A stretch of 64,000 nt of DNA from the IMG/VR virus record IMGVR_UViG_3300028886_000041, one strand, 5' to 3'. A program made the translations under genes and the position numbers. Within the stretch, counting starts at the first letter, position 1, and the number at the start of each line of letters is the position of its first letter. The DNA comes from a virus (Duplodnaviria; Caudoviricetes). Under the pieces are notes generated by a model. That model saw only the letters and a program-made list of their open reading frames with translations. It did no database searches and was not told the origin of the DNA. Positions 3,691-22,177 of this stretch are shown here, piece by piece.

Positions 3691-3823
3691 AAAATTAATC
3701 TCTTGAAACGTTAATTGAAAATCTAATATCAGTAACGAATTGATATAAATATATAATAAATAAAAATTGATAAAAATCAATAAAAATTTTTCAAAAAATA
3801 AACTATTTTACATAAATAATTAT

Positions 3824-4426
3824 ATGAAAGCAAAACAGATTGTATCTATTTTAGGTATATCAAAACCAACATTAACAAAATATGTTAAAGAAGGCCTAAT
3901 AAAAATTGATAATGTTATTAATGGTAGATATTTATATAATGATGAATCTGTGTATGCACTAATAGGCAATCGAAAATGTTGTAAGAACAAATATAGTGTA
4001 ATTTATGCTAGAGTTTCAAATCCACCCAAAAAATATCTCGATGAACAAATTCAACGTATTTCTAATTTTTGCATTTCCAAAGGTATTCAAATAACTAAAG
4101 TATATTCTGATATAAAATCTGGTATGTATTTTAATAGAGAAGGATTAGATAATTTAATTTTGGATATAGTTAAAGGTAATATAGATACAATTGTTATTGA
4201 AAATAAAGATAGGTTATGTCGTTTTGGGTTTGAATTGTTTTTATCATTTTGTAAATTTTATAAAACTAAAATTTTAATTATATCTGATTTATCGGAAAAA
4301 TCTTATGAACAGGAGCTGACAGAAGATTTAATATCAATAATACATTATTTTTCTATGAAATCTTATTCCCATAGAAGAAAATTAAACAAATTACGAAAGG
4401 AAATAGAAAATAATGATAACAATTAA
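3824..4426 (+). CDS. tnpA: IS607 serine recombinase TnpA
   Basis: N-terminal MerR-type HTH, IYARVS catalytic motif, KDRLCRFGFE, EQELTEDLISIIHYFS. Confidence 0.93.
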   Translation: MKAKQIVSILGISKPTLTKYVKEGLIKIDNVINGRYLYNDESVYALIGNRKCCKNKYSVIYARVSNPPKKYLDEQIQRISNFCISKGIQITKVYSDIKSGMYFNREGLDNLILDIVKGNIDTIVIENKDRLCRFGFELFLSFCKFYKTKILIISDLSEKSYEQELTEDLISIIHYFSMKSYSHRRKLNKLRKEIENNDNN

Positions 4427-5756
4427 ATTAGATATTACAACAACAAACCCCAATAGGATTTTAGAATATCAAAAACAATATTCGAATTTATTACATATAT
4501 TTTATAATAGATATAAAGAAGGCATATCTCAAACAGAATGTAAACATCTTCAATTTAATAATATTGAATTATTAGATAGTTGGTTCAGACAAAGCTGTAT
4601 ATATGAGGCCATAGCATTATGTAAAAAATTTAAAGATAAATCAATTATATTTGGAGGAAAGAAAAATTTCTTTGATAGATTAAAGAATATTATTAGTAAA
4701 GAAGAATATAATAGAAATAGATTAAGTCCTTTATATTCAATAGGTGAGGGTTCTAATCCAGGCGTAAAAGGGAATAGGAAATTTTTTATACGAGATTTAA
4801 ATACAATAATTTTTAAACCATCTAAGAAAGAAAAAATAGAATTAAAATTTCAAATTAATTCGAAAAAATATAAACAATATTTGCAATTATTAATGTTACA
4901 TCAAGATAAAAAAGACTTATCTATTACTTACAAATTATCTCATGAAAAAATTTGGATAAGTTTTGATGAAACTATTTTAAAAACTGAATTAAAAAATTAT
5001 AATAAAATTCAAAATAGAATAATTAGTATTGATTTAAATCCAAATTATATTGGATATTCTGTTTTAGATTGGTTAGATAGTGAACATTTTAATATTATTG
5101 ATAAAGGTATTTTAAGTTTAAAATATTTAAATGATAAAGAAAATAAAACAAAATGCTCATCTAATGATAAACTGAAAATTTATTTAAATAATAAAAGAAA
5201 TTTTGAAGTATTAGAAATATCTAAATTTCTTATAAATAAAATGAAACATTTTAAATGTTCTTTATTTGCTATTGAAAATCTAAATATTAAATCAAAAGAT
5301 AATGGCAAAGGTCGTAAATTCAATAAACTTTGTAATAATCAATGGTGTCGGACAAAATTAGTTAATAATTTACAAAAATGGTGTAATATATATTCAGTAA
5401 ATTTACTAAAAGTTAATCCTGAATATTCATCATTTATCGGAAATATAGTAAACAGAGAATTGAAATTACCTGATATGATTTTAAGTTCAATAGAAATATC
5501 ACGAAGAGCTTTTGAATTTAATCATCAATATATTTTAAAAGATTGTCCTTTAAAAAAGAATATAATATGGATAGAAATGACTAATTATATTAAAAACAAA
5601 ATTATTCAGTCATTGGAAGAATTGAATATTTGTTGTGATTGGAAAAATCTGTTCGAATTATATTTACACATCAAAAAATCTAAATGTAAATATAGATTTC
5701 CACTAGAAATAGATGGTTTTAAGGCAAAATTATTAAAATATCAATTAATTTTTTAA
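4413..5756 (+). CDS. tnpB: IS607-associated TnpB-like RuvC nuclease
   Basis: RuvC-I IISIDLN, RuvC-II FAIENL, VNPEYSS, RuvC-III LPDMILSSIEI; no CxxC zinc ribbon. Confidence 0.85.
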   Translation: MITIKLDITTTNPNRILEYQKQYSNLLHIFYNRYKEGISQTECKHLQFNNIELLDSWFRQSCIYEAIALCKKFKDKSIIFGGKKNFFDRLKNIISKEEYNRNRLSPLYSIGEGSNPGVKGNRKFFIRDLNTIIFKPSKKEKIELKFQINSKKYKQYLQLLMLHQDKKDLSITYKLSHEKIWISFDETILKTELKNYNKIQNRIISIDLNPNYIGYSVLDWLDSEHFNIIDKGILSLKYLNDKENKTKCSSNDKLKIYLNNKRNFEVLEISKFLINKMKHFKCSLFAIENLNIKSKDNGKGRKFNKLCNNQWCRTKLVNNLQKWCNIYSVNLLKVNPEYSSFIGNIVNRELKLPDMILSSIEISRRAFEFNHQYILKDCPLKKNIIWIEMTNYIKNKIIQSLEELNICCDWKNLFELYLHIKKSKCKYRFPLEIDGFKAKLLKYQLIF

Positions 5757-5845
5757 TATTTTTAATTGATTTAAAATTATTTTGCTATTTAAATGTTTAA
5801 TATTTGTAATTATAGGATTATATTTTTTGTTTTGGCTAGAATTAT

Positions 5846-6208
5846 TCATTGTATTACATGCCACACGTCATATTTGGCATATATAGTTTTGATATGTTTA
5901 GTTAATTTTTCTATTTCTTCCAACATATCACTAACAAGATATCCAGATTCTAAATAACAATTTACCCACACGTTTTCTTTATTTGGATCTGCAGTTGATA
6001 TTTTAATGGACCAAATTTTGGGATCTAAGTTATTGAAAAAGTAAAATAAAATCTTGTTAATTAAACACGCACCAATATCAAACCAAATACGTATAGGTTC
6101 TTTGTCATGACCACAACAACTACATGTAGTTTTAAGAGCAGGAATAGTATTTAATGCAATAACAAGATCACGAATTTCAGAATCAATATCTTTTATTTCT
6201 TCAATCAT
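5846..6208 (-). CDS. hypothetical protein with TYW3-like N-terminus
   Basis: IDSEIRDLVIALN...KTTCSCCGH resembles the TYW3 N-terminal motif. Confidence 0.5.
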   Translation of the reverse strand: MIEEIKDIDSEIRDLVIALNTIPALKTTCSCCGHDKEPIRIWFDIGACLINKILFYFFNNLDPKIWSIKISTADPNKENVWVNCYLESGYLVSDMLEEIEKLTKHIKTIYAKYDVWHVIQ

Positions 6209-6242
6209 TTTTAGAGTTTCGTTGTGATATTATAGTGCAATT

Positions 6243-6680
6243 TCAAATATATGTTTTTAAATTAGAAATTTTTTCGTCTATTTTTGTTAATTCTTTTATA
6301 ATTTTGGATCTTTTTATATTTAGAATTTTAAGCTTTTTTGAAATTTGTTTCTTTATAATATTTTCAAAATTATCAGAATCAAATAATTGTCGAATAATCT
6401 TCCTATATGTTTTACAAGATACATAAGAATTACCTTGAACACCAACTACCGCGTTATCAAATGTTTGTATATGCCATTTAATAAATTTATCATTATCAAT
6501 GGCAATAAATTGACCCCAATAATTGTCTATCAAATTTTTAGACCACATATCAAATTGAATCCAGCCGTCACTTACATCCCAACATATATCTCTAAGATAA
6601 ATTTTGATTTTGTCTAAATTAACCGTTGCGTATATTTCGCGGGTTTCTTTATTTTCATAATACCTAATTTTAGCTTTCAT
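6243..6680 (-). CDS. hypothetical protein
   Basis: 145 aa; ATG 6 nt after promoter motif. Confidence 0.75.
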   Translation of the reverse strand: MKAKIRYYENKETREIYATVNLDKIKIYLRDICWDVSDGWIQFDMWSKNLIDNYWGQFIAIDNDKFIKWHIQTFDNAVVGVQGNSYVSCKTYRKIIRQLFDSDNFENIIKKQISKKLKILNIKRSKIIKELTKIDEKISNLKTYI

Positions 6681-6686
6681 ATGGTA

Positions 6687-6703
6687 ATTATAATAAAGAG
6701 TTA
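6687..6703 (-). promoter_or_regulatory. TAACTC-N5-TATAAT promoter
   Basis: TAACTC TTTAT TATAAT, 6 nt before ATG 6680. Confidence 0.75.
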
Positions 6704-7111
6704 AATTACTCTTAATCTATGTAACCCACATTTTGTACAATATTCTTCAACATATACAAATTTCCACCAAAGATGGCCTTCTTGATGATATTTACATATT
6801 TGCCAATCATGATCACAGTCTTCGTTTTGTTCCTTTTTTAAGTTAGTATCAAAACCCGGGGTATGTTGCAACGCAGTAAACACAGTAGAATCAATATGTT
6901 TATTCACCAATTCTTTATCCATATTTGGAAACTTATTTCTATAAAGAGAACGAGTATGAAATGCAATTTTTTCTGCTTCCGATAAATTGCTTATATGTTT
7001 TATGCCTTTATAAATATCAGCATAATGAGCAGGTAATTCAGGAAATTCATCATCTGTTATTTCCATATATCCATATTTTATTCTGAATAATTTTTCTTGG
7101 TATTTGTTCAT
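6701..7111 (-). CDS. hypothetical protein with C-terminal CxH...CxxC zinc ribbon
   Basis: CDHDW...YCTKCG. Confidence 0.7.
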   Translation of the reverse strand: MNKYQEKLFRIKYGYMEITDDEFPELPAHYADIYKGIKHISNLSEAEKIAFHTRSLYRNKFPNMDKELVNKHIDSTVFTALQHTPGFDTNLKKEQNEDCDHDWQICKYHQEGHLWWKFVYVEEYCTKCGLHRLRVI

Positions 7112-7147
7112 TTTATTTGTTTATCTTTTATTTTTAAGATGGATTGT

Positions 7148-7489
7148 TTAATATGTCCCATCGGTTGCTGGTTTAATTTCATAATCGCCCGTACTATCCA
7201 CGCGATTTTCTTCTATTGGTTTATTTTCAGAATTTTCTTCTTGCGTTTTTGATGATACAACATGAATATGATTTGGATACAAAAGATCTTCATTTATATC
7301 TTGAAAAACTAATGCATCGCATTCTACTATGTCTGCTCTTGGATTATCACGAAGCATAGACATAGCATATACTTTTAATTCATGTTCTAAAGTTTTTCTT
7401 GTAGATTCTGTATTAGGTTTATTCTTATATTTTTCACAAATATCCTCCAATGAAGATTTAAAATTTCCTAAAGTAAACATTTTTGACAT
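7148..7489 (-). CDS. hypothetical protein
   Basis: 113 aa, AGGAGA upstream. Confidence 0.7.
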   Translation of the reverse strand: MSKMFTLGNFKSSLEDICEKYKNKPNTESTRKTLEHELKVYAMSMLRDNPRADIVECDALVFQDINEDLLYPNHIHVVSSKTQEENSENKPIEENRVDSTGDYEIKPATDGTY

Positions 7490-7698
7490 GATATTCTCCT
7501 TTTTAATTTAAATGCATAATTGGTTGATTATTTATAAATCATTTCATGTTGTTTATATTTCATATCCTCGGATATTTTATCTAATTCTTTTTGTCTCTGA
7601 TTGAAATTTATATATTCATCTTCATATATTTTATTTCTCTTTCTTGTTTTTGCAAGGACAAGATTCAGCATGAATTTTCTCTTTAGCTTGTTGATAGG

Positions 7699-8088
7699 TC
7701 ATTGCAATTTTTGAAGAAAAACTTTTAGTTTATTTACCAAGTAGTTAACGCATTCTTCTAGGCTTTCCACTTGATCCTGCAGCGATTTAGCCTGTAAAGT
7801 TAGATAATTTTGTTTATTCTTAGGCAATGCTATGCAAGTGTTCTTCCAACTAGTAGAATCGAATTTTAATGATCCAATAAACCAATAGCGGTCATGTCCT
7901 TTCTTTACGCTAGGTTTCCAACAACGATCCGTGTGGTCTATAATTGGTTTACTTTCGAAAACACATACACCTCCATTGTGATCTACTGTAATATATCTCC
8001 AGTCTTCGTATTCGAAGCAGCCTTTGGGTCTACGATCATAAACCTGCATTATTTTATATTTTAATTGTTTTGTTAACTTTCTGCTCAT
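7699..8088 (-). CDS. hypothetical phage protein
   Basis: 129 aa; WRYITVDHNG...FESKP small phage-protein motif. Confidence 0.7.
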   Translation of the reverse strand: MSRKLTKQLKYKIMQVYDRRPKGCFEYEDWRYITVDHNGGVCVFESKPIIDHTDRCWKPSVKKGHDRYWFIGSLKFDSTSWKNTCIALPKNKQNYLTLQAKSLQDQVESLEECVNYLVNKLKVFLQKLQ

Positions 8089-8195
8089 GCTATTTTTATC
8101 AATTGTTGCATATTTATATTTTGAAATTTGAGTAATATGCTATGCGTTTTTAAGCATATTTAATACCATAGTTTTAAACTCTTCTTTTGATATTT

Positions 8196-8435
8196 TCATT
8201 TGTTTTTTCCTTTCTTTAATTTTTCAAGAATTCTTTCAACTGGGTAATCAGAGTATAACCATTTAAATGTTTTGCCATTCTTGAGGACAACAATTGTTGA
8301 AACTAAATCAATAGTAATTGGCCAGCTTCCAGTGCTTTCAGTTTTGCTATACACAGCAGCAACTGTAGAAGGTTTTATATGAACACCACCAATTTCAACA
8401 AACTCTTCTTCACTATCAGCTTTCAATTCACTCAT
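8196..8435 (-). CDS. hypothetical protein, single copy of the 8428-9279 repeat domain
   Basis: DSEEEFVEIGGVHIKPSTVAAVY...ILEKLKKG. Confidence 0.75.
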   Translation of the reverse strand: MSELKADSEEEFVEIGGVHIKPSTVAAVYSKTESTGSWPITIDLVSTIVVLKNGKTFKWLYSDYPVERILEKLKKGKNK

Positions 8436-9279
8436 GACAGCCTTTCTTTAATTTTTCAAGAATTTCATCAGCTGTATACCGACTTGCTGGAAATATAACT
8501 TTACCACCATATTTAAGTGTTACACATATTGCATTATGTTCATAGTTTGTATCTGCATATATAGCTACTGCATATTCTGGTCTTATATATGCTGTCATAT
8601 ATGTATTTCCAATCTTGATAAAACTTTCTTTGTTTTTCTCTAAGAAATCAAAAACATCAGCAGCAAATGCATGCTTTGTTTTAATTTCTTGGCCTCCTTT
8701 CAATAGAATTTTGATACAAGGATATTCAAAAACCTCTTCGTATATAGCAACTACAGCTGAAGGTTTTATATAATTATTGTTGATTTTAACAAATTCTTCT
8801 TCGGTGGAATCTGGTGAATATTTCACAGCTTTCTGAATTTGTTCTTCCGACAATTCAGCTCCTTCAATATCTTTCAATTCAGAAACATATTTGGTTTTAT
8901 TATTAGGTTTATAAATTTTATATGCAAATTCTAGCGCTCTTTCTTCTCTAAGCTCTTTATCTAAACGCTCAAAAATTTCTTTAGCTTCTTGTACTAACTC
9001 TTGTGCAAATTTTTGCGACGGCTGTGCCCAAACTGTTTCTACAAAGCTAATATTATATATACTATCCTTATAAGAAAATACCATTTTATAACAATTATTT
9101 ACTAGATGCTTAATGCCGAAATATGCATCTCCATTAAAATCGAAATGTTTGTAAGAATAGTCTTTTATATATGTACTTGCGGCATAAGCTTCTATTTCTT
9201 TCAAACAATCCAAAAAACCATCTATAGTGGCAAATTTAGATAATATCTTTTTTAAGTCTGTTTCGTTTTGTTTTGTCAT
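8428..9279 (-). CDS. modular hypothetical protein
   Basis: N-half paralogous to 16439-16945; C-half has two copies of the 8196-8435 domain. Confidence 0.8.
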   Translation of the reverse strand: MTKQNETDLKKILSKFATIDGFLDCLKEIEAYAASTYIKDYSYKHFDFNGDAYFGIKHLVNNCYKMVFSYKDSIYNISFVETVWAQPSQKFAQELVQEAKEIFERLDKELREERALEFAYKIYKPNNKTKYVSELKDIEGAELSEEQIQKAVKYSPDSTEEEFVKINNNYIKPSAVVAIYEEVFEYPCIKILLKGGQEIKTKHAFAADVFDFLEKNKESFIKIGNTYMTAYIRPEYAVAIYADTNYEHNAICVTLKYGGKVIFPASRYTADEILEKLKKGCHE

Positions 9280-9316
9280 TTGTAAATTATTTTTTGATTT
9301 GATATAAGAGAGTTAT

Positions 9317-9588: not shown

Positions 9589-9801
9589 AAATTTGCGGAT
9601 TTTTTCAACAATGCCTTGATATACAATAATTAAAATATCTAATTCGGCATTTGTACATTTTTCTAAATCAGGAAGTGATAAATTAGCTCCTGCTATTGCT
9701 TTTAAAATATAATCAGGAAGTTCAGGTGGCCAATTATCACCTGCTCTGATTATTTGTTCGTAATTTTTTTCGCTTTTTGATTTTTGATTTTCGTTTTTCA
9801 T
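9577..9801 (-). CDS. hypothetical protein
   Basis: 74-aa ORF coupled to upstream gene. Confidence 0.65.
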   Translation of the reverse strand: MKNENQKSKSEKNYEQIIRAGDNWPPELPDYILKAIAGANLSLPDLEKCTNAELDILIIVYQGIVEKIRKFKES

Positions 9802-10274
9802 TTTTTTATTGATTTTACTATAATCATTGCACTTAAAACACTAGAGGCCAAGAAAATAGAAAAGTATAAATGAGGGAGAGGTTGCCCGGAAGGAGTATAT
9901 GGTTTATCAATAATAGTTACAGAAAAACTTATACCACCATTACCATTGCCACCTATTTTATACAATTGAATACCATTTTCTGTTTTAGAAGTAGTCATCT
10001 TTAAAACAGTACCATTCTTTTTCTGTTTAACAAATCTTACTTCGTCACCTTCTTTAAATTCTAAAGCTTTCTTTAAATCTTCTTCGGTAAGTAAAAAGAA
10101 AGTTTTATCATTATTAAGATAATATCCAAAGCCGGTGGTATCACCAGATACAGTCAATCCAACTGTTGTATCACTATCAAAAATAATAGCATGTTTACCG
10201 TTATTAAAGGTAAATGAAGCAAAACAATTAAGTGTTGCTAATAAGATAAAAATAAAAAATAGTTTGTTCTTCAT
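9798..10274 (-). CDS. exported protein with C-terminal PSGQPLP-TM-basic sorting-like signal
   Basis: Signal peptide MKNKLFFIFILLATLNCFA; C-terminus PSGQPLP, hydrophobic helix, KSIKK. Confidence 0.7.
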   Translation of the reverse strand: MKNKLFFIFILLATLNCFASFTFNNGKHAIIFDSDTTVGLTVSGDTTGFGYYLNNDKTFFLLTEEDLKKALEFKEGDEVRFVKQKKNGTVLKMTTSKTENGIQLYKIGGNGNGGISFSVTIIDKPYTPSGQPLPHLYFSIFLASSVLSAMIIVKSIKK

Positions 10275-17317: not shown

Positions 17318-17541
17318 TTTTGTTCCCTTTTGTCTTTCTTCATATACAAACGTTTAATTATACAATTATTCCAAGGCCAATCATAAAATCCAGAACTAAG
17401 CAAATCTTCCATCTCTTCTAAATTATGATGATAGATAGTTGCATCTTCAAGTTTATCTACAAAAACAACAGGAGATTTCCATAAATTGTCGCATTTTAAG
17501 TAGGTTTTATTTTTTCTATTATAAACTATTGATTTTGCCAT
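17314..17541 (-). CDS. hypothetical protein
   Basis: ATG 6 nt after promoter motif 17548-17564. Confidence 0.7.
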   Translation of the reverse strand: MAKSIVYNRKNKTYLKCDNLWKSPVVFVDKLEDATIYHHNLEEMEDLLSSGFYDWPWNNCIIKRLYMKKDKREQK

Positions 17542-17547
17542 AATGAT

Positions 17548-17564
17548 ATTTTAAAAGAGAGTTA
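17548..17564 (-). promoter_or_regulatory. TAACTC-N5-TAAAAT promoter (second copy at 17610-17626)
   Basis: TAACTC TCTTT TAAAAT; TAACTC TTAAA TATAAT. Confidence 0.7.
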
Positions 17565-17575
17565 TTTTTTAAAAA

Positions 17576-17607
17576 TAAAAAACCATAAGGAATTTTTCCT
17601 TATGGTT
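17576..17607 (-). terminator. intrinsic terminator
   Basis: AACCATAAGG/CCTTATGGTT hairpin followed by a T-tract on the minus strand. Confidence 0.75.
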
Positions 17608-17737
17608 ATATTATATTTAAGAGTTATTTTAAATTAAATTATCAATTATTTTTTACATGATTGATCACTCGTGTATTAAAAGTTTTACCTTTATCAGCTG
17701 CATTTATATTAGAAAAAGCAGCTGTTCTATTCATAGA

Positions 17738-19613
17738 TGGTGCATGACCGGCTCCGCGCTATTTCACGCGCTCGAGCAACCGAGAAACATCATGATTACC
17801 GTCACCGAAAAGATACGCCCAGTGTGTTATTCCTCTGAGCCCTCGTCGGGTTCGTCTATCGCCTTGCCGTTGTATCGGTCAGCGATAGCCTGAACGTTGG
17901 ATATGCCGAGACGCGCGACGTCGTCCGCGTTCAGGCGTATGACGCGCCCTGGTGCGACAAGTCTGCCGCCGTCTGTGTAGATGTCACCGCAAACTTCGAT
18001 GACCTCGATTTGCAGGTTTTCGTTATCGCCGATTTTTATGCGTGATTGATTTTTCATTTTACATTATGAGTTCGTCGTATGTTATCGCCGCTCGAAGATT
18101 GACGATTCCAGTTCCGGCGGCGTTGCGGAAAATGGAAATTGGAATGTTGTAATCGCCGCCGCCCCAGCAGTTGACAGACTGCCACGTGCGCGCGGCGGAG
18201 AATGTTACCGAGGAGGTGTATCCGCTCGCCGATACGCGGAGAGTTAGCGCTTTGTCGCTCCAAAGTTTGAGCGTGCAGACGCACTTGCCTGCCGCAGCCA
18301 CGACTGTCGAGCCGCCTATTCTGGCGCCCGTATTCTTGGACAAATCGAGCGAGAAATTATCGTAACAAGCCGACGCGGGATTTCGGTTTTTGTCAGCGCT
18401 GACGCCGAGCCCGACGGGAACATATCCCTCGTGAAAATTAAGGTGGTTTCCGTTTCCGGACAGGTCATGTATTTGAGGCCCTGAAAGGGCGTCGTCGGCT
18501 TCGCAGAGGACGTCATCGGCGGTCGTTATCGAAAATCCTGCGACGGATATGGCGTAGTCGCCGTATGTGGGTGAGTTTGTCGGTGAGACGAACAGCGCGG
18601 GAATGTAAAGGCCGTCCTCAATGCTGTCAGTTATGACGGCGTCGTATTCGTGCCACGAGGTGTCGGGTGCGGTCGGCGCGTTGATTTTGACGAGTTGCTG
18701 CTCGGAGATTTCGGGCCCCCATATATAGACGCCGAAGAAGACACTGTCGGTCGCGCTCGTGAGCTTATTCCACTTATACTTAAACTTTATGCGGTATTTG
18801 CGCGTCGATGTGTCCGTCTGAAAATGCCCGTAAGAGTTGCTGAGCGCAGCTTGTTCGTAGATGTTGCCGCTGCCGTTCATCGCGAGGTCTATGGCGTAGC
18901 TCTCGCCGTCGGGCAGGTCTGACGCTCTGTTTTTAAGATAAGACACAAGCGGGCCAGCTACCCAGTCGCCATTTTTAACGGACGAGTATTCCTCCGGCGG
19001 CGTGGTGATGTTCCACGCGGACGTGGACGCGCCCATTGTCGTGTCGGTCGAATATCCATATCGACTGCGCAGCGCACGCGGAACGGATTTCCCCGCGCGG
19101 TAGTCGGCGAACGTGTAAGGCGCGTTCTCGTCCAGAATATCGAAGTCAAAAACCGCAAGCCGCGAAAAGCTGCTGTCGCCATTCGCATAAGTGGAGTTGA
19201 AGCCGAACTCAGTGACGGACGTGGAGAAAGACAGGCTCGTAGCCGCGAGAGACGAATCGTTCGCGGCGATTTTTATTTTTCCGTCGGACGTCCAGACGAA
19301 CGCGACGCAGTATATCGGCGCGGCGGGAATATTGTTGAGCGTGACAGTGTCGAGCCGTTGGTCGTCCATAATTGTGAAAAACGCCGTCGCGGACGACGTG
19401 TGTCCGCCGAATGGGCAGCCGAACATTGTAAACAGCTCCGACTCGTTCATGCTGTCGGTCGTGAATACAAACGAACAAGTTGGCTGAATGTTATAATTTG
19501 CCCGATTGCAGGAGACCTTTTCGGCGCCAGCTGGCGCGTAAAATTTGCCGATGCGCTCTCGCATTAAAAATTCGCTCGAGGACTGAGCCACCTCGAGAAT
19601 TTCGTCGGAAATG
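17738..19613. other. GC-rich horizontally acquired cassette
   Basis: Sampled 60-nt lines inside have 28-40 G+C against 9 in a flanking line; abrupt edges. Confidence 0.9.
17827..18057 (-). CDS. small protein accompanying the fibre C-terminal domain
   Basis: 76 aa, starts 1 nt after the upstream stop, GC-rich codons. Confidence 0.7.
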   Translation of the reverse strand: MKNQSRIKIGDNENLQIEVIEVCGDIYTDGGRLVAPGRVIRLNADDVARLGISNVQAIADRYNGKAIDEPDEGSEE

Positions 19614-20068
19614 TCACCACTTAAAGTAGCACCATTGATAGTTGGTTTGTTTTCTAAATCGTTATAACTAACACTTAAATCAACAGTGGAAAGATCACCA
19701 CTTAAAGTAACACCATTGATAGTTGGTTTGTTTTCTAAATCGTTATAATCTGATGTTCCACCATCATTTAATAAATATACTAATTTAGCATATCTCGGAT
19801 ATAATCCTTCTTTTCCAGATAAGGGTGGTATAACAGATGAATCTATTTCAACTAACGCACAATCTTCAGCATGTGCTGGATTATACGGATTTTCCGGGTG
19901 AATATCGTTATTATTGCCGTTATTTACGTTATAAACAAATGTAGCATATCTTGGATATACCCCTTCAAGCCCTGTTAGAGGAGAAACAACCGATTGATCT
20001 ACCTCTGTTAAAGTTAAATCTTCAGCATGTGCTGGATTGTAAGGATTTTCTGGATTAATAGTTGACAT
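18059..20068 (-). CDS. chimeric tail-fibre/receptor-binding-like protein
   Basis: AT-rich repeated N-terminus (ENPYNPAHAED x2; YNDLENKPTING.TLSGD x2) fused to a GC-rich beta-rich C-terminus with LamG-associated DLSGNGNH motif; start 8 nt after TAAATA. Confidence 0.7.
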   Translation of the reverse strand: MSTINPENPYNPAHAEDLTLTEVDQSVVSPLTGLEGVYPRYATFVYNVNNGNNNDIHPENPYNPAHAEDCALVEIDSSVIPPLSGKEGLYPRYAKLVYLLNDGGTSDYNDLENKPTINGVTLSGDLSTVDLSVSYNDLENKPTINGATLSGDISDEILEVAQSSSEFLMRERIGKFYAPAGAEKVSCNRANYNIQPTCSFVFTTDSMNESELFTMFGCPFGGHTSSATAFFTIMDDQRLDTVTLNNIPAAPIYCVAFVWTSDGKIKIAANDSSLAATSLSFSTSVTEFGFNSTYANGDSSFSRLAVFDFDILDENAPYTFADYRAGKSVPRALRSRYGYSTDTTMGASTSAWNITTPPEEYSSVKNGDWVAGPLVSYLKNRASDLPDGESYAIDLAMNGSGNIYEQAALSNSYGHFQTDTSTRKYRIKFKYKWNKLTSATDSVFFGVYIWGPEISEQQLVKINAPTAPDTSWHEYDAVITDSIEDGLYIPALFVSPTNSPTYGDYAISVAGFSITTADDVLCEADDALSGPQIHDLSGNGNHLNFHEGYVPVGLGVSADKNRNPASACYDNFSLDLSKNTGARIGGSTVVAAAGKCVCTLKLWSDKALTLRVSASGYTSSVTFSAARTWQSVNCWGGGDYNIPISIFRNAAGTGIVNLRAAITYDELIM
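19614..19748. repeat. 54-bp direct repeat (19614-19667 and 19695-19748, one mismatch)
   Basis: TCACCACTTAAAGTA[G/A]CACCATTGATAGTTGGTTTGTTTTCTAAATCGTTATAA twice, 81-nt period. Confidence 0.95.
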
Positions 20069-20094
20069 TATACAAATATTTATCAAAAATTAAT

Positions 20095-20120
20095 AAAAAA
20101 GAGAAGGATAATCCTTCTCT
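20095..20120 (-). terminator. intrinsic terminator
   Basis: AGAGAAGGAT/ATCCTTCTCT hairpin plus T-tract after the paralogue triplet. Confidence 0.75.
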
Positions 20121-20145
20121 TAAAAACATAATATTTTTAGTTAAA

Positions 20146-20808
20146 TTAATTAGTGAGTTTGCGCATTGTAAGGGCCTTTTTAATAGCTTGAAGTTCTTCA
20201 AGATTTTCCTTACCCCCACTAAGTAACATTTCGTTTTCAACAAGATCTAAGACTTTAATGCCCTTATCAACTGGCATTTTTGTTAAAACATCCCTTTTAA
20301 TCATATCCCAGATATAATTAACACTGTTTCCCATCCCCGGTATTTTAGCAATAACCGTATCGTAGTCTTGCATAATCAAAGCACAAACCACAATTTTACC
20401 AAGCGGTGGTTGACAATTATTTAACTTCCAATTGTTTTTCTTTAACTTATCGTAAGCATTGGGTGTTTTACAAAATACAATAGCACTGAGTTGCAATACA
20501 ACTATATCAGAAACATTTGTTATTTCTTCATGAAACATATTGTAATAAGGACTGAACATCACGTATGCCTTAAGTGTTGAATTTCGTTGTTCAACTGAAG
20601 TAGCGGTGTTAAATAAACTCATAGCTGTTTCCGAAGATTTGAATTTATTAAACTCCTTATCAAAATCCGCTTTGTTTGCTAAAATATAATCATTTTTAGC
20701 GGAATATGTATCATTAAACGGAAATTCCGAAATGAGTTGATTAAGGTCTTTTGCAAAAACGTTAAGACCAATTAATGTTGTGATTGTTAAAATAATAAGT
20801 TTTTTCAT
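20146..20808 (-). CDS. secreted protein, tandem paralogue 3
   Basis: Signal peptide then AKDLNQLI; ends KKALTMRKLTN. Confidence 0.85.
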   Translation of the reverse strand: MKKLIILTITTLIGLNVFAKDLNQLISEFPFNDTYSAKNDYILANKADFDKEFNKFKSSETAMSLFNTATSVEQRNSTLKAYVMFSPYYNMFHEEITNVSDIVVLQLSAIVFCKTPNAYDKLKKNNWKLNNCQPPLGKIVVCALIMQDYDTVIAKIPGMGNSVNYIWDMIKRDVLTKMPVDKGIKVLDLVENEMLLSGGKENLEELQAIKKALTMRKLTN

Positions 20809-20834
20809 AGTTTTTATAAGTTGTTATTTTTGTA

Positions 20835-21497
20835 TTAGTTAGAAATTTTACGCATTGTTAATACTTTTCGAATAGTCTGACAATCTTCAAAATTAGTATT
20901 AAGATCGTTTAACAACATTTCATTTTCACAAAGATCTAAAATTTTTATAGCTTTATCATTCGGAGCATTTGTAATTACTAATTTTTTGATAGAGCCCCAT
21001 AGATAGTCTACGGTTTTACCGGAACCAGGTAAAAAAGAAATCAATAAATCAATATCTTGTGCATGAATGAGGCATGAAATAATATGGGGTTTATTAACGT
21101 AAACATTATTAATAGTCCAATTATTAGCTTTTAATTTGTTATATTTAGCTTTATTTTCGACAAATATTCGTGCACTAAGATGCAGTGCGACCAAATCATT
21201 GACATCAGTTATTTCACTATGGAACATTGAATAATATATAGTAAATAATCCATATTGTGAATCTGATGTTTTTCTTTCATCAGAAGTAGCAGTGGCGTTA
21301 TATGGAACCATAGCAAGTTCTGAAGATTTAAATGTATTAAATTCTTTGGCTATATCTGTTTTGTTTGCGCTAACATATGCGCGTTTTTCATAAAAAGTTC
21401 CATTTGTGGGAAACTCTCGAATAAGTTGATTTAAATCTTTGGCATACATAGATATACCAAAGAACAAAGTAAATAATGTAATAAGTATTTTTTTCAT
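20835..21497 (-). CDS. secreted protein, tandem paralogue 2
   Basis: Signal peptide then AKDLNQLI; ends RKVLTMRKISN. Confidence 0.85.
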   Translation of the reverse strand: MKKILITLFTLFFGISMYAKDLNQLIREFPTNGTFYEKRAYVSANKTDIAKEFNTFKSSELAMVPYNATATSDERKTSDSQYGLFTIYYSMFHSEITDVNDLVALHLSARIFVENKAKYNKLKANNWTINNVYVNKPHIISCLIHAQDIDLLISFLPGSGKTVDYLWGSIKKLVITNAPNDKAIKILDLCENEMLLNDLNTNFEDCQTIRKVLTMRKISN

Positions 21498-21511
21498 AGT
21501 ATTATAGTAAA

Positions 21512-22177
21512 TTAGTTAGCAAGTTTACGCATCGTTAATGCTTTTTTGATGTTTTGACATTCTTCAAGATTTGTCTTAAGCCCTTTCATTAGCATTTCTG
21601 TTTCGCAAAGATTAAGAATCTGAATGCCTTTATCTGTTGTAGTTTCACGAAGCACAGCCTTTTTAATCAAAGTCCAGCAGATATCAACAGCGCCTCCAGA
21701 CATAGGAATAACAGCGACAGCGGTATCAAAATCTTTAGATTCTAAAGCAGCAGAAAGAATTTGGTTCTTCTTAATTGAAACGTTACCAATTTTCCATCCA
21801 TTAGCTTTAAGCTCCGCATATTTATCAAGTTTTACACAATATACCCAAACACTAAGGCGTAAGGATACAAGATCAGGAACATCATTAGTTTCACCATAGA
21901 ATTGAATATACCAAGTATTAAAAAGACTATAAAGTTTATTAGCTTCTTCTTTTTCCGCATCGGTAGCGTTTTGTTTATAAGGAGCTAAAGCAATAGCTGA
22001 TTTTTTAAATGAATTAAAAGCAGTTGCTAAATCGTCCTTATTTGTGGCTGTATATATGTACTTTTGACCTCGTGTTCCATTTGCAGGATATTCAGACAAA
22101 AGCTGGTTAAGATCCTTAGCATACATCGATACACTAAGAATTAATATTGATATTGTTGTTAATATTTTTTTAATCAT
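21512..22177 (-). CDS. secreted protein, tandem paralogue 1
   Basis: Signal peptide then AKDLNQLL; ends KKALTMRKLAN. Confidence 0.85.
   Translation of the reverse strand: MIKKILTTISILILSVSMYAKDLNQLLSEYPANGTRGQKYIYTATNKDDLATAFNSFKKSAIALAPYKQNATDAEKEEANKLYSLFNTWYIQFYGETNDVPDLVSLRLSVWVYCVKLDKYAELKANGWKIGNVSIKKNQILSAALESKDFDTAVAVIPMSGGAVDICWTLIKKAVLRETTTDKGIQILNLCETEMLMKGLKTNLEECQNIKKALTMRKLAN

Follow-up and report, generated by a model that had tools for sequence, protein, structure and literature searches.

Tail-fibre mosaicism among the phages P2, Mu, lambda and T4 was reportedly described by Haggard-Ljungquist in 1992 and by Sandmeier in 1994. The Alteromonas phages A5 (a schitovirus) and V22 (a myovirus) have in common a host-recognition module composed of a tail fibre and its cognate chaperone, which was ascribed to horizontal transfer and recombination (PMC10579305). 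In T-even phages, according to the citing source, the distal tail fibre and the gp38 adhesin are swapped at conserved motifs (Tetart et al. 1996, 1998, cited in PMC3157838). The base composition of a phage can also be remote from that of its host, as for phiKZ, with 36.83% guanine plus cytosine (GC) versus 66.6% for its host P. aeruginosa (PMC6039544). Here, a mosaic fibre gene is described in the IMG/VR virus record IMGVR_UViG_3300028886_000041, of which a stretch of 64,000 nucleotides (nt), referred to as the window, was analysed. In the reading that is favoured, with a probability of about 0.8, a native N-terminal anchor and a shaft carrying a YNDL motif were fused in frame, by an illegitimate join, to a C-terminal module recently derived from an Opitutales prophage lineage together with the gene of a companion protein of 76 amino acids (aa), and the lectin-like tip was thereby re-aimed at the host of the donor.

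A GC-rich island in the genome of an AT-rich giant phage

The complete record has 105,954 base pairs (bp), 27.6% GC and an estimated completeness of 48% (CheckV). It belongs to a T4-like giant myovirus of the cattle rumen that encodes gp6-like and gp5-like baseplate proteins, an NAD ligase, RtcB and a tRNA array. Scanning by 300-nt intervals revealed a single GC-rich island, both in the window and in the whole record. The island extends from position 17738 to about 19610 (1.87 kb) with an overall GC content of 55.0%. The GC fraction is 0.53-0.59 in the intervals between 17750 and 19550, 0.21-0.35 in the flanks and at most 0.47 in all other intervals. The GC content at third codon positions (GC3) reaches 0.68 in the island. 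The N-terminal part of the same fibre gene has only 0.15, and six further phage genes range from 0.14 to 0.28.

A first-pass annotation of the same DNA, made from the sequence alone, had reported about 1.9 kb of GC-rich DNA in a very AT-rich genome, consisting of the C-terminal part of a fibre gene (about 520 aa) and of a coupled 76-aa gene, with neither integrase nor transposase adjacent. These observations were confirmed by the GC scan, by the open reading frames (ORFs), which give about 516 aa for the fibre part, and by Pfam and NCBIfam scans of the neighbouring ORFs, in which no integrase or transposase was found beside the island. The nearest mobile-element genes are tnpA and tnpB of an IS607 element at 3767-5756. 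The same scans matched no recombinase or nuclease gene in the flanking ORFs, and neither direct nor inverted repeats flank the island. On these grounds, the insertion of a mobile element, be it an insertion sequence, an integrase cassette or a homing-endonuclease cassette, is not supported.

The two parts of the fibre have different ancestries. The N-terminal attachment part is common to relatives of the phage itself: protein P0008 of the related phage L007 begins with a sequence 85% identical to the anchor, and the identity is 58-66% in the phage L048, where two fibre genes start with it. In these two anchor-sharing phages, the Metallophos neighbours are about 50% identical to those of the recipient. 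The C-terminal part is of other descent than the remainder of the genome.

Opitutales prophages as the donor lineage

From 19589 to 17846, the window is 93.3% identical at the nucleotide level, over 1744 ungapped bp, to the contigs L002 and L003, which come from two rumen assemblies in ENA and are identical to each other over the matched stretch. The identity is 90% to L004 and 67% to L005. The search of bacterial and metagenomic DNA that had been advised to find the source of the island was therefore successful, and the proposal that the binding module came from a GC-rich prophage lineage is borne out by this match, the donor-type contigs L002, L003 and L004 having 57-59% GC throughout. The matched DNA is the only one common to the 106-kb record and the Opitutales prophages.

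The donor-type contigs encode a small temperate siphovirus of the HK97 type, in which the genes are ordered as TerS, TerL, portal, S78 protease, HK97 capsid, head-tail adaptor, 726-aa fibre, 75-aa protein, 155-aa protein, head closure, Neck1, tape measure and integrase. In L002, L055 and L058, a host DMT_6 gene lies right beside the integrase, and the same locus is unoccupied in L054 (110 kb, 58.9% GC). The attachment site beside the Opitutales DMT_6 gene is found empty at 9591-10556 in L054 and occupied at 323-2522 in L055. Several L054 proteins (ValRS, NadB-like, PurU, OPRTase and others) fall in clusters of at least 90% identity with an Opitutales metagenome-assembled genome (MAG; locus tags IJI37_), and one is identical to MBQ6534965.1. 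The IJI37_ MAG also holds L005, whose fibre is 55% identical to that of the window. A third version of the cassette, 39% identical, is carried by L039, a 337-kb contig from the metagenome of L054. HtrA and one neighbour of it in L039 cluster with the IJI37_ MAG, and MurA shares 82% identity with its counterpart in Candidatus Merdousia (Opitutales). Because of the integration beside DMT_6, the clustering of L054 with an Opitutales MAG and the versions present in L005 and L039, the donor lineage is assigned to a family of prophages that reside in an uncultured Opitutales bacterium of the rumen with 59% GC.

Two further searches bore on the donor. The relatives of its TerL are only 30-37% identical and mostly found in Clostridia, which is of no help for the host, and a comparison of the module alignment with the GTDB species genomes and IMG/VR, made with two narrow peptide patterns only, found nothing. 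In L039, the Opitutales chromosome carries an isolated pair of genes at 5203-7708, for a full-length fibre (about 710 aa from MDNQ...) and for its partner of 77 aa. They are flanked by MurA, Sel1 and GT2 on one side and by HtrA and ADH on the other, with no further phage gene within about 5 kb. This lone fibre could be a remnant or a domesticated fibre.

Direction and age of the transfer

The module is at home at 57-59% GC and foreign at 27.6% GC, so the transfer proceeded from the prophage lineage to the giant phage. The reverse transfer, from an AT-rich phage to the prophages, was rejected on composition. The transfer is also recent, since the island retains the codon composition of the donor (GC3 of 0.68 against 0.15), in line with what the first-pass annotation had claimed. 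Its overall GC content is 55.0% versus 56.1% in L002. When the substitutions were polarised with L004, 42 GC to AT changes and 14 AT to GC changes were assigned to the window lineage, versus 24 and 12 to L002. The bias of the window lineage would be at most a first trace of amelioration. The ratios of synonymous to non-synonymous changes are alike in the three lineages (25:20, 13:10 and 31:38), so that the module is not decaying and would still be functional.

Position of the joint

At most about 7-25 nt separate the start of the island from the end of the second of two 27-aa shaft units (YNDLENKPTING). The switch of composition had previously been placed at the end of the second copy of a 54-bp repeat (19614-19667), with the frame kept. 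The preservation of the frame and the proximity to the unit end hold true, whereas the repeat was measured as 61 nt, at 19607-19667 and 19688-19748, with 95% identity and a period of 81 nt corresponding to one 27-aa unit. The 21 nt that separate the end of the repeat from the start of the donor similarity have 52% GC and encode SDEILEV. On the 3' side, the donor match passes the stop codon of the small gene and runs for about 25 nt into the next gene of the donor, followed by about 65 nt of GC-rich DNA and then by native AT-rich DNA.

Many unrelated fibre proteins, from phages with 31-55% GC, contain 1-7 copies of the YNDL motif, which agrees with the earlier statement that the peptide occurs in many phage fibres. 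A literature search for the motif by its letters returned nothing relevant. Scans of viral and metagenomic contigs with exact patterns of the 5' junction and the repeat gave 0 matches and were judged uninformative.

A recurrent breakpoint is found at the other side of the joint, in the module family. The proteins P0010 and P0011, encoded in L059 and L061, have unrelated N-termini and are about 95% identical from ...ERGTYY on, which is the counterpart of ...ERIGKFYAP in the present fibre. They represent a second, independent swap in this family, in phages with 42-45% GC (L059 5001-7698 and L061 205-3377). The DNA of the two contigs is 91% identical from a point inside the fibre gene, ahead of ERGTYY, and remains so across a 72-aa gene and the one that follows it, up to where the contig stops. 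The recurrent breakpoint belongs to the start of the incoming module (ER.G..Y).

Predicted fold of the module and of its small partner

Sequence searches in Pfam, PHROGs and PDB gave no match for the module. An AlphaFold (AF2) model computed from 21 relatives comprises three beta-sandwich domains with a mean predicted local distance difference test (pLDDT) score of 65, residues 1-33 of the model being below 50. Foldseek matched it to carbohydrate-binding module (CBM)-like domains (Vip3 domains, CBM22, CBM4, CBM51) and, among viral models, to LamG/ConA-like tail fibre, minor tail and neck-appendage proteins. The E-values range from 1e-7 to 1e-11, with template modelling (TM) scores of only 0.15-0.25 and a model of medium confidence; the TM-scores are low because the arrangement of the domains differs. 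The best reading of the model, held with medium confidence, is that the module forms a lectin-like receptor-binding tip. Native AT-rich proteins with a distant homologue (30-32%) of the middle of the same type of module are encoded in L007 (13623-15605) and L048 (1067-3277).

A small gene directly follows the module in every relative examined. The 76-aa protein of the window is 89-92% identical to the product of the 75-aa gene of L002 and L004, 79% to that of L005 and 60% to that of L039. In L059 and L061, a 72-aa gene occupies the same position with little apparent sequence similarity, as judged without alignment. The AF2 model of the 76-aa protein has a pLDDT of 49 and its fold is uncertain. 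The protein is possibly a fibre chaperone or a partner of the tip.

Alternative explanations

The switch of composition is very sharp, as it would be in a chimeric assembly of reads from two organisms, against which the first-pass annotation had cautioned. However, an independent contig of 2,394 bp from another metagenome (L062, JGI 3300026539) aligns to the window from 20050 to 17666 at 99.5% identity and spans both junctions. Its differences, three single-nucleotide polymorphisms and a 9-nt insertion, are all located in the AT-rich part and the island is identical, so that L062 represents a second strain carrying the same graft. The exact 669-aa protein is encoded on contigs of 112,736 bp (ENA) and 211,612 bp (JGI/IMG) in addition to the 105,954-bp record, from two sources; two junctions are concerned, in frame and at a domain boundary; and the AT-rich flanks and the donor relatives have no common sequence able to mislead an assembler. 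On this sequence evidence, a chimera is considered effectively refuted. A genuine join could still have been made by homology, the repeat serving as a recombination socket as was first proposed: an unsampled donor would have had a YNDL-type unit ahead of its module and the crossover would have fallen inside the shared unit. Indeed, SDEILEV continues the protein pattern of the unit (compare STVDLSV in unit 1) in codons with 52% GC, as if a donor unit ended there, and the motif occurs in GC-rich phages such as L047 (55.5% GC). The fibres of the recipient's relatives L007 and L048 have the anchor and one YNDL unit followed by their own differing AT-rich C-termini; alleles do vary after that point, and the comparison of related phages that had been advised thus gave the expected outcome. 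Nevertheless, the motif was found upstream of the module in none of the 35 scoring module relatives other than the query's own protein, two further hits matching only the YNDL unit retained in the query. The 93% and 90% donor relatives have an Ala-rich coiled coil upstream of the matched stretch and no YNDL unit, whereas exchange of the T-even type involves a motif present in both parents at the crossover. The motif DNA from ten other phage loci has no more than 13 identical bases in a row with the unit of the window, and some 40 nt lie between the conserved NKPT core and the switch downstream of it. The socket is consequently not retained and homologous exchange within a shared unit seems quite improbable. 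Because of the absence of the motif in the module relatives, the short identical runs and the breakpoint at the start of the module, the join is read as an illegitimate or microhomology-level event.

The alternative for the function is that the module binds environmental glycans, such as those of plant fibre or mucus, instead of a host receptor, in which case its origin would be silent on the host of the recipient. Its structural matches are to generic CBM, LamG and ConA-like sandwiches, and the module family also exists in phages with 42-45% GC. The donor gene moreover occupies a neck-appendage position, between the head-tail adaptor and the head-closure genes (L002 2499-6692). These points are opposed by the lack of any other large tail-tip or receptor-binding gene past the tape measure in the donor prophages: only proteins of 314 and 203 aa are encoded there, which suggests that the donor fibre may be the main host-recognition protein. 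In addition, a single Opitutales species or genus contains three divergent versions of the cassette (the 93% type, L005 at 55% and L039 at 39%), which fits a host-directed function. Binding to environmental glycans is held to be unlikely.

Proposed course of the transfer and host of the giant phage

In the mosaic-fibre reading, both DNAs must have been present together in one cell for the graft to arise, and there the join would have been made by illegitimate or microhomology-level recombination. Selection would have kept the join owing to its position in the disordered linker that separates the shaft from the tip (the residues of the model with pLDDT below 50); with a flexible linker between shaft and globular tip, both halves would fold. 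The module would then act as a lectin-like receptor-binding tip, the 76-aa protein would be needed alongside it as a chaperone or partner, and the graft would have redirected the fibre towards the cell surface of the donor's host. The retention of a binding tip argues that the giant phage adsorbs to the target of the donor. That this phage of 27.6% GC infects the same rumen Opitutales bacterium of 59% GC as the donor prophage is plausible, with odds somewhat short of even.

Other data on the host come from the phage itself. Nine tRNA genes are located at 5854-9308 of the record, in part at 153-2149 of the window (Gln-UUG, Glu-UUC, Ala-UGC, Ile-GAU, Thr-UGU, Asn-GUU, Met-CAU, Lys-UUU and Cys-GCA). 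Most of these tRNAs have U34, so A-ending codons are read, which is weakly consistent with a GC-rich host. A tblastn search of the fibre against 50,697 phage records gave no match. Searches with the baseplate wedge and the ligase returned relatives that are only 22-38% identical and no cultured relative pointing to a host, and TnpB of the IS607 element matched only metagenome sequences. A PEP-CTERM-like tail (9798-10274) has no NCBIfam match and no similar tail was found in the approximately 45 kb of Opitutales DNA examined.

Several points weigh against the favoured reading or its extension to the host. A gap of 31 GC points between the phage and its proposed host is extreme. No sampled donor exceeds 93% identity, so that the immediate donor and its host lie outside the sampled sequences and the module may have passed through intermediates; such intermediates, along with the presence of the module family in phages with 42-45% GC, weaken the link to a shared host. 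The 21-nt linker on the 5' side and the remaining 65 nt or so of the 89-nt remnant on the 3' side match nothing sampled. The GC to AT excess of the window lineage surpasses that of L002 (24:12) by a modest margin only. Finally, the fold was assigned from a medium-confidence model with low TM-scores throughout.

If the shared host is true, the difference of about 31 points would rank with the largest GC gaps recorded between a phage and its host, and the origin of a fresh fibre tip could be used to assign hosts to uncultured giant phages. In any case, the module provides a concrete host hypothesis for an uncultured giant rumen phage without cultured relatives.

Organisation of the locus

The features of the locus are listed in Table 1. 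The duplication of the anchor is a second in-frame tandem repeat of the fibre gene, of 144 nt with 72% identity (repeat family D2). In the AT-rich relatives, two fibre genes start with the same anchor of about 50 aa (L007 6249-9827; L048 1-605 and 8504-9871). The tandem anchor of the window's gene perhaps arose by fusion or unequal exchange between two anchor-bearing fibre genes. The insertion of the second strain (L062 287-295) is in frame and lengthens, at window position 19765, the Gly-rich linker that connects the anchor to the first YNDL unit (LLNGGGSGGTS versus LLNDGGTS). Directly upstream of the fibre gene, three tandem paralogues of about 220 aa each are encoded at 20146-22177 of the window (repeat family D1, with spacings of 689 and 677 nt). 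Two genes resembling these paralogues, with 27-30% identity, are found in L048 at 17418-18823.

Table 1. Coordinates of the features of the mosaic fibre locus in the window
Feature	Position	Strand	Description
Mosaic fibre gene	18059..20068	minus	669 aa from ATG; two anchor domains, two YNDL shaft units, foreign C-terminal module; from ORF and translation
Tandem duplicated N-terminal domain, about 52 aa (PENPYNPAHAED...LYPRYA)	19761..20060	minus	Presumed virion-attachment anchor; native AT-rich DNA
Two 27-aa shaft units (YNDLENKPTING.TLSGD)	19607..19748	minus	Repeat family D3
5' junction zone	19589..19613	minus	Composition switch just past second unit; AT-rich repeat ends at 19607; donor similarity from about 19589-19592
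Foreign GC-rich coding part	18059..19606	minus	Linker and three predicted beta-sandwich (lectin/CBM-like) domains, about 510-516 aa; presumed receptor-binding tip
Co-transferred 76-aa gene	17827..18057	minus	Starts one base past fibre stop; possibly fibre chaperone or tip partner
GC-rich non-coding remnant, 3' end of island	17738..17826	minus	First 25 nt or so resemble start of donor's next gene
Intrinsic-terminator-like hairpin and T-run	17581..17607	minus	Native AT-rich DNA; closes two-gene unit
Terminator-like hairpin of upstream gene	20099-20121	minus	
GATAAATA late-promoter-like motif	20077-20084	minus	8 nt ahead of fibre ATG; putative promoter

Comparison with described systems

The A5/V22 fibre-plus-chaperone module is the nearest documented parallel of the present cassette. 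In both cases, a fibre and the small gene that follows it move jointly between phage morphotypes. Unlike A5 and V22, which have a known common host and a similar composition, the donor is here a prophage about 30 GC points apart from the recipient, only the C-terminal part of the fibre was transferred and the small protein is only a putative chaperone. As in the T-even swaps, in the form in which the citing source reports them, chimeric adhesins are produced by exchange at or near conserved motifs and small tandem duplications are found in the fibre. However, the motif of that account is present in both parents, whereas here only the recipient shows it and the breakpoint that recurs is the point where the incoming module starts. 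The reusable joint of the module family is hence this start and not the widespread YNDL shaft motif.

The mosaic fibres of P2, Mu, lambda and T4 resemble the present one in that C-terminal fibre parts and assembly genes are reportedly common to unrelated phages. Their similarities are reportedly old and compositionally blended, whereas the module described here is unameliorated and traceable to a host lineage. With respect to composition, phiKZ offers a precedent, being a giant phage whose GC content differs from that of its host by about 30 points, although in the present phage the gap is only implied by the origin of the module. At this locus, DNA of a temperate siphovirus has passed to a lytic T4-like myovirus despite a difference of about 30 GC points. 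Both parents are recognisable, and the donor is traced to an integrated prophage whose unoccupied site is also seen. Overall, the event is a classical mosaic-fibre exchange of a well-known kind, in a case that is unusually fresh and in which the donor and the donor's host can be traced.

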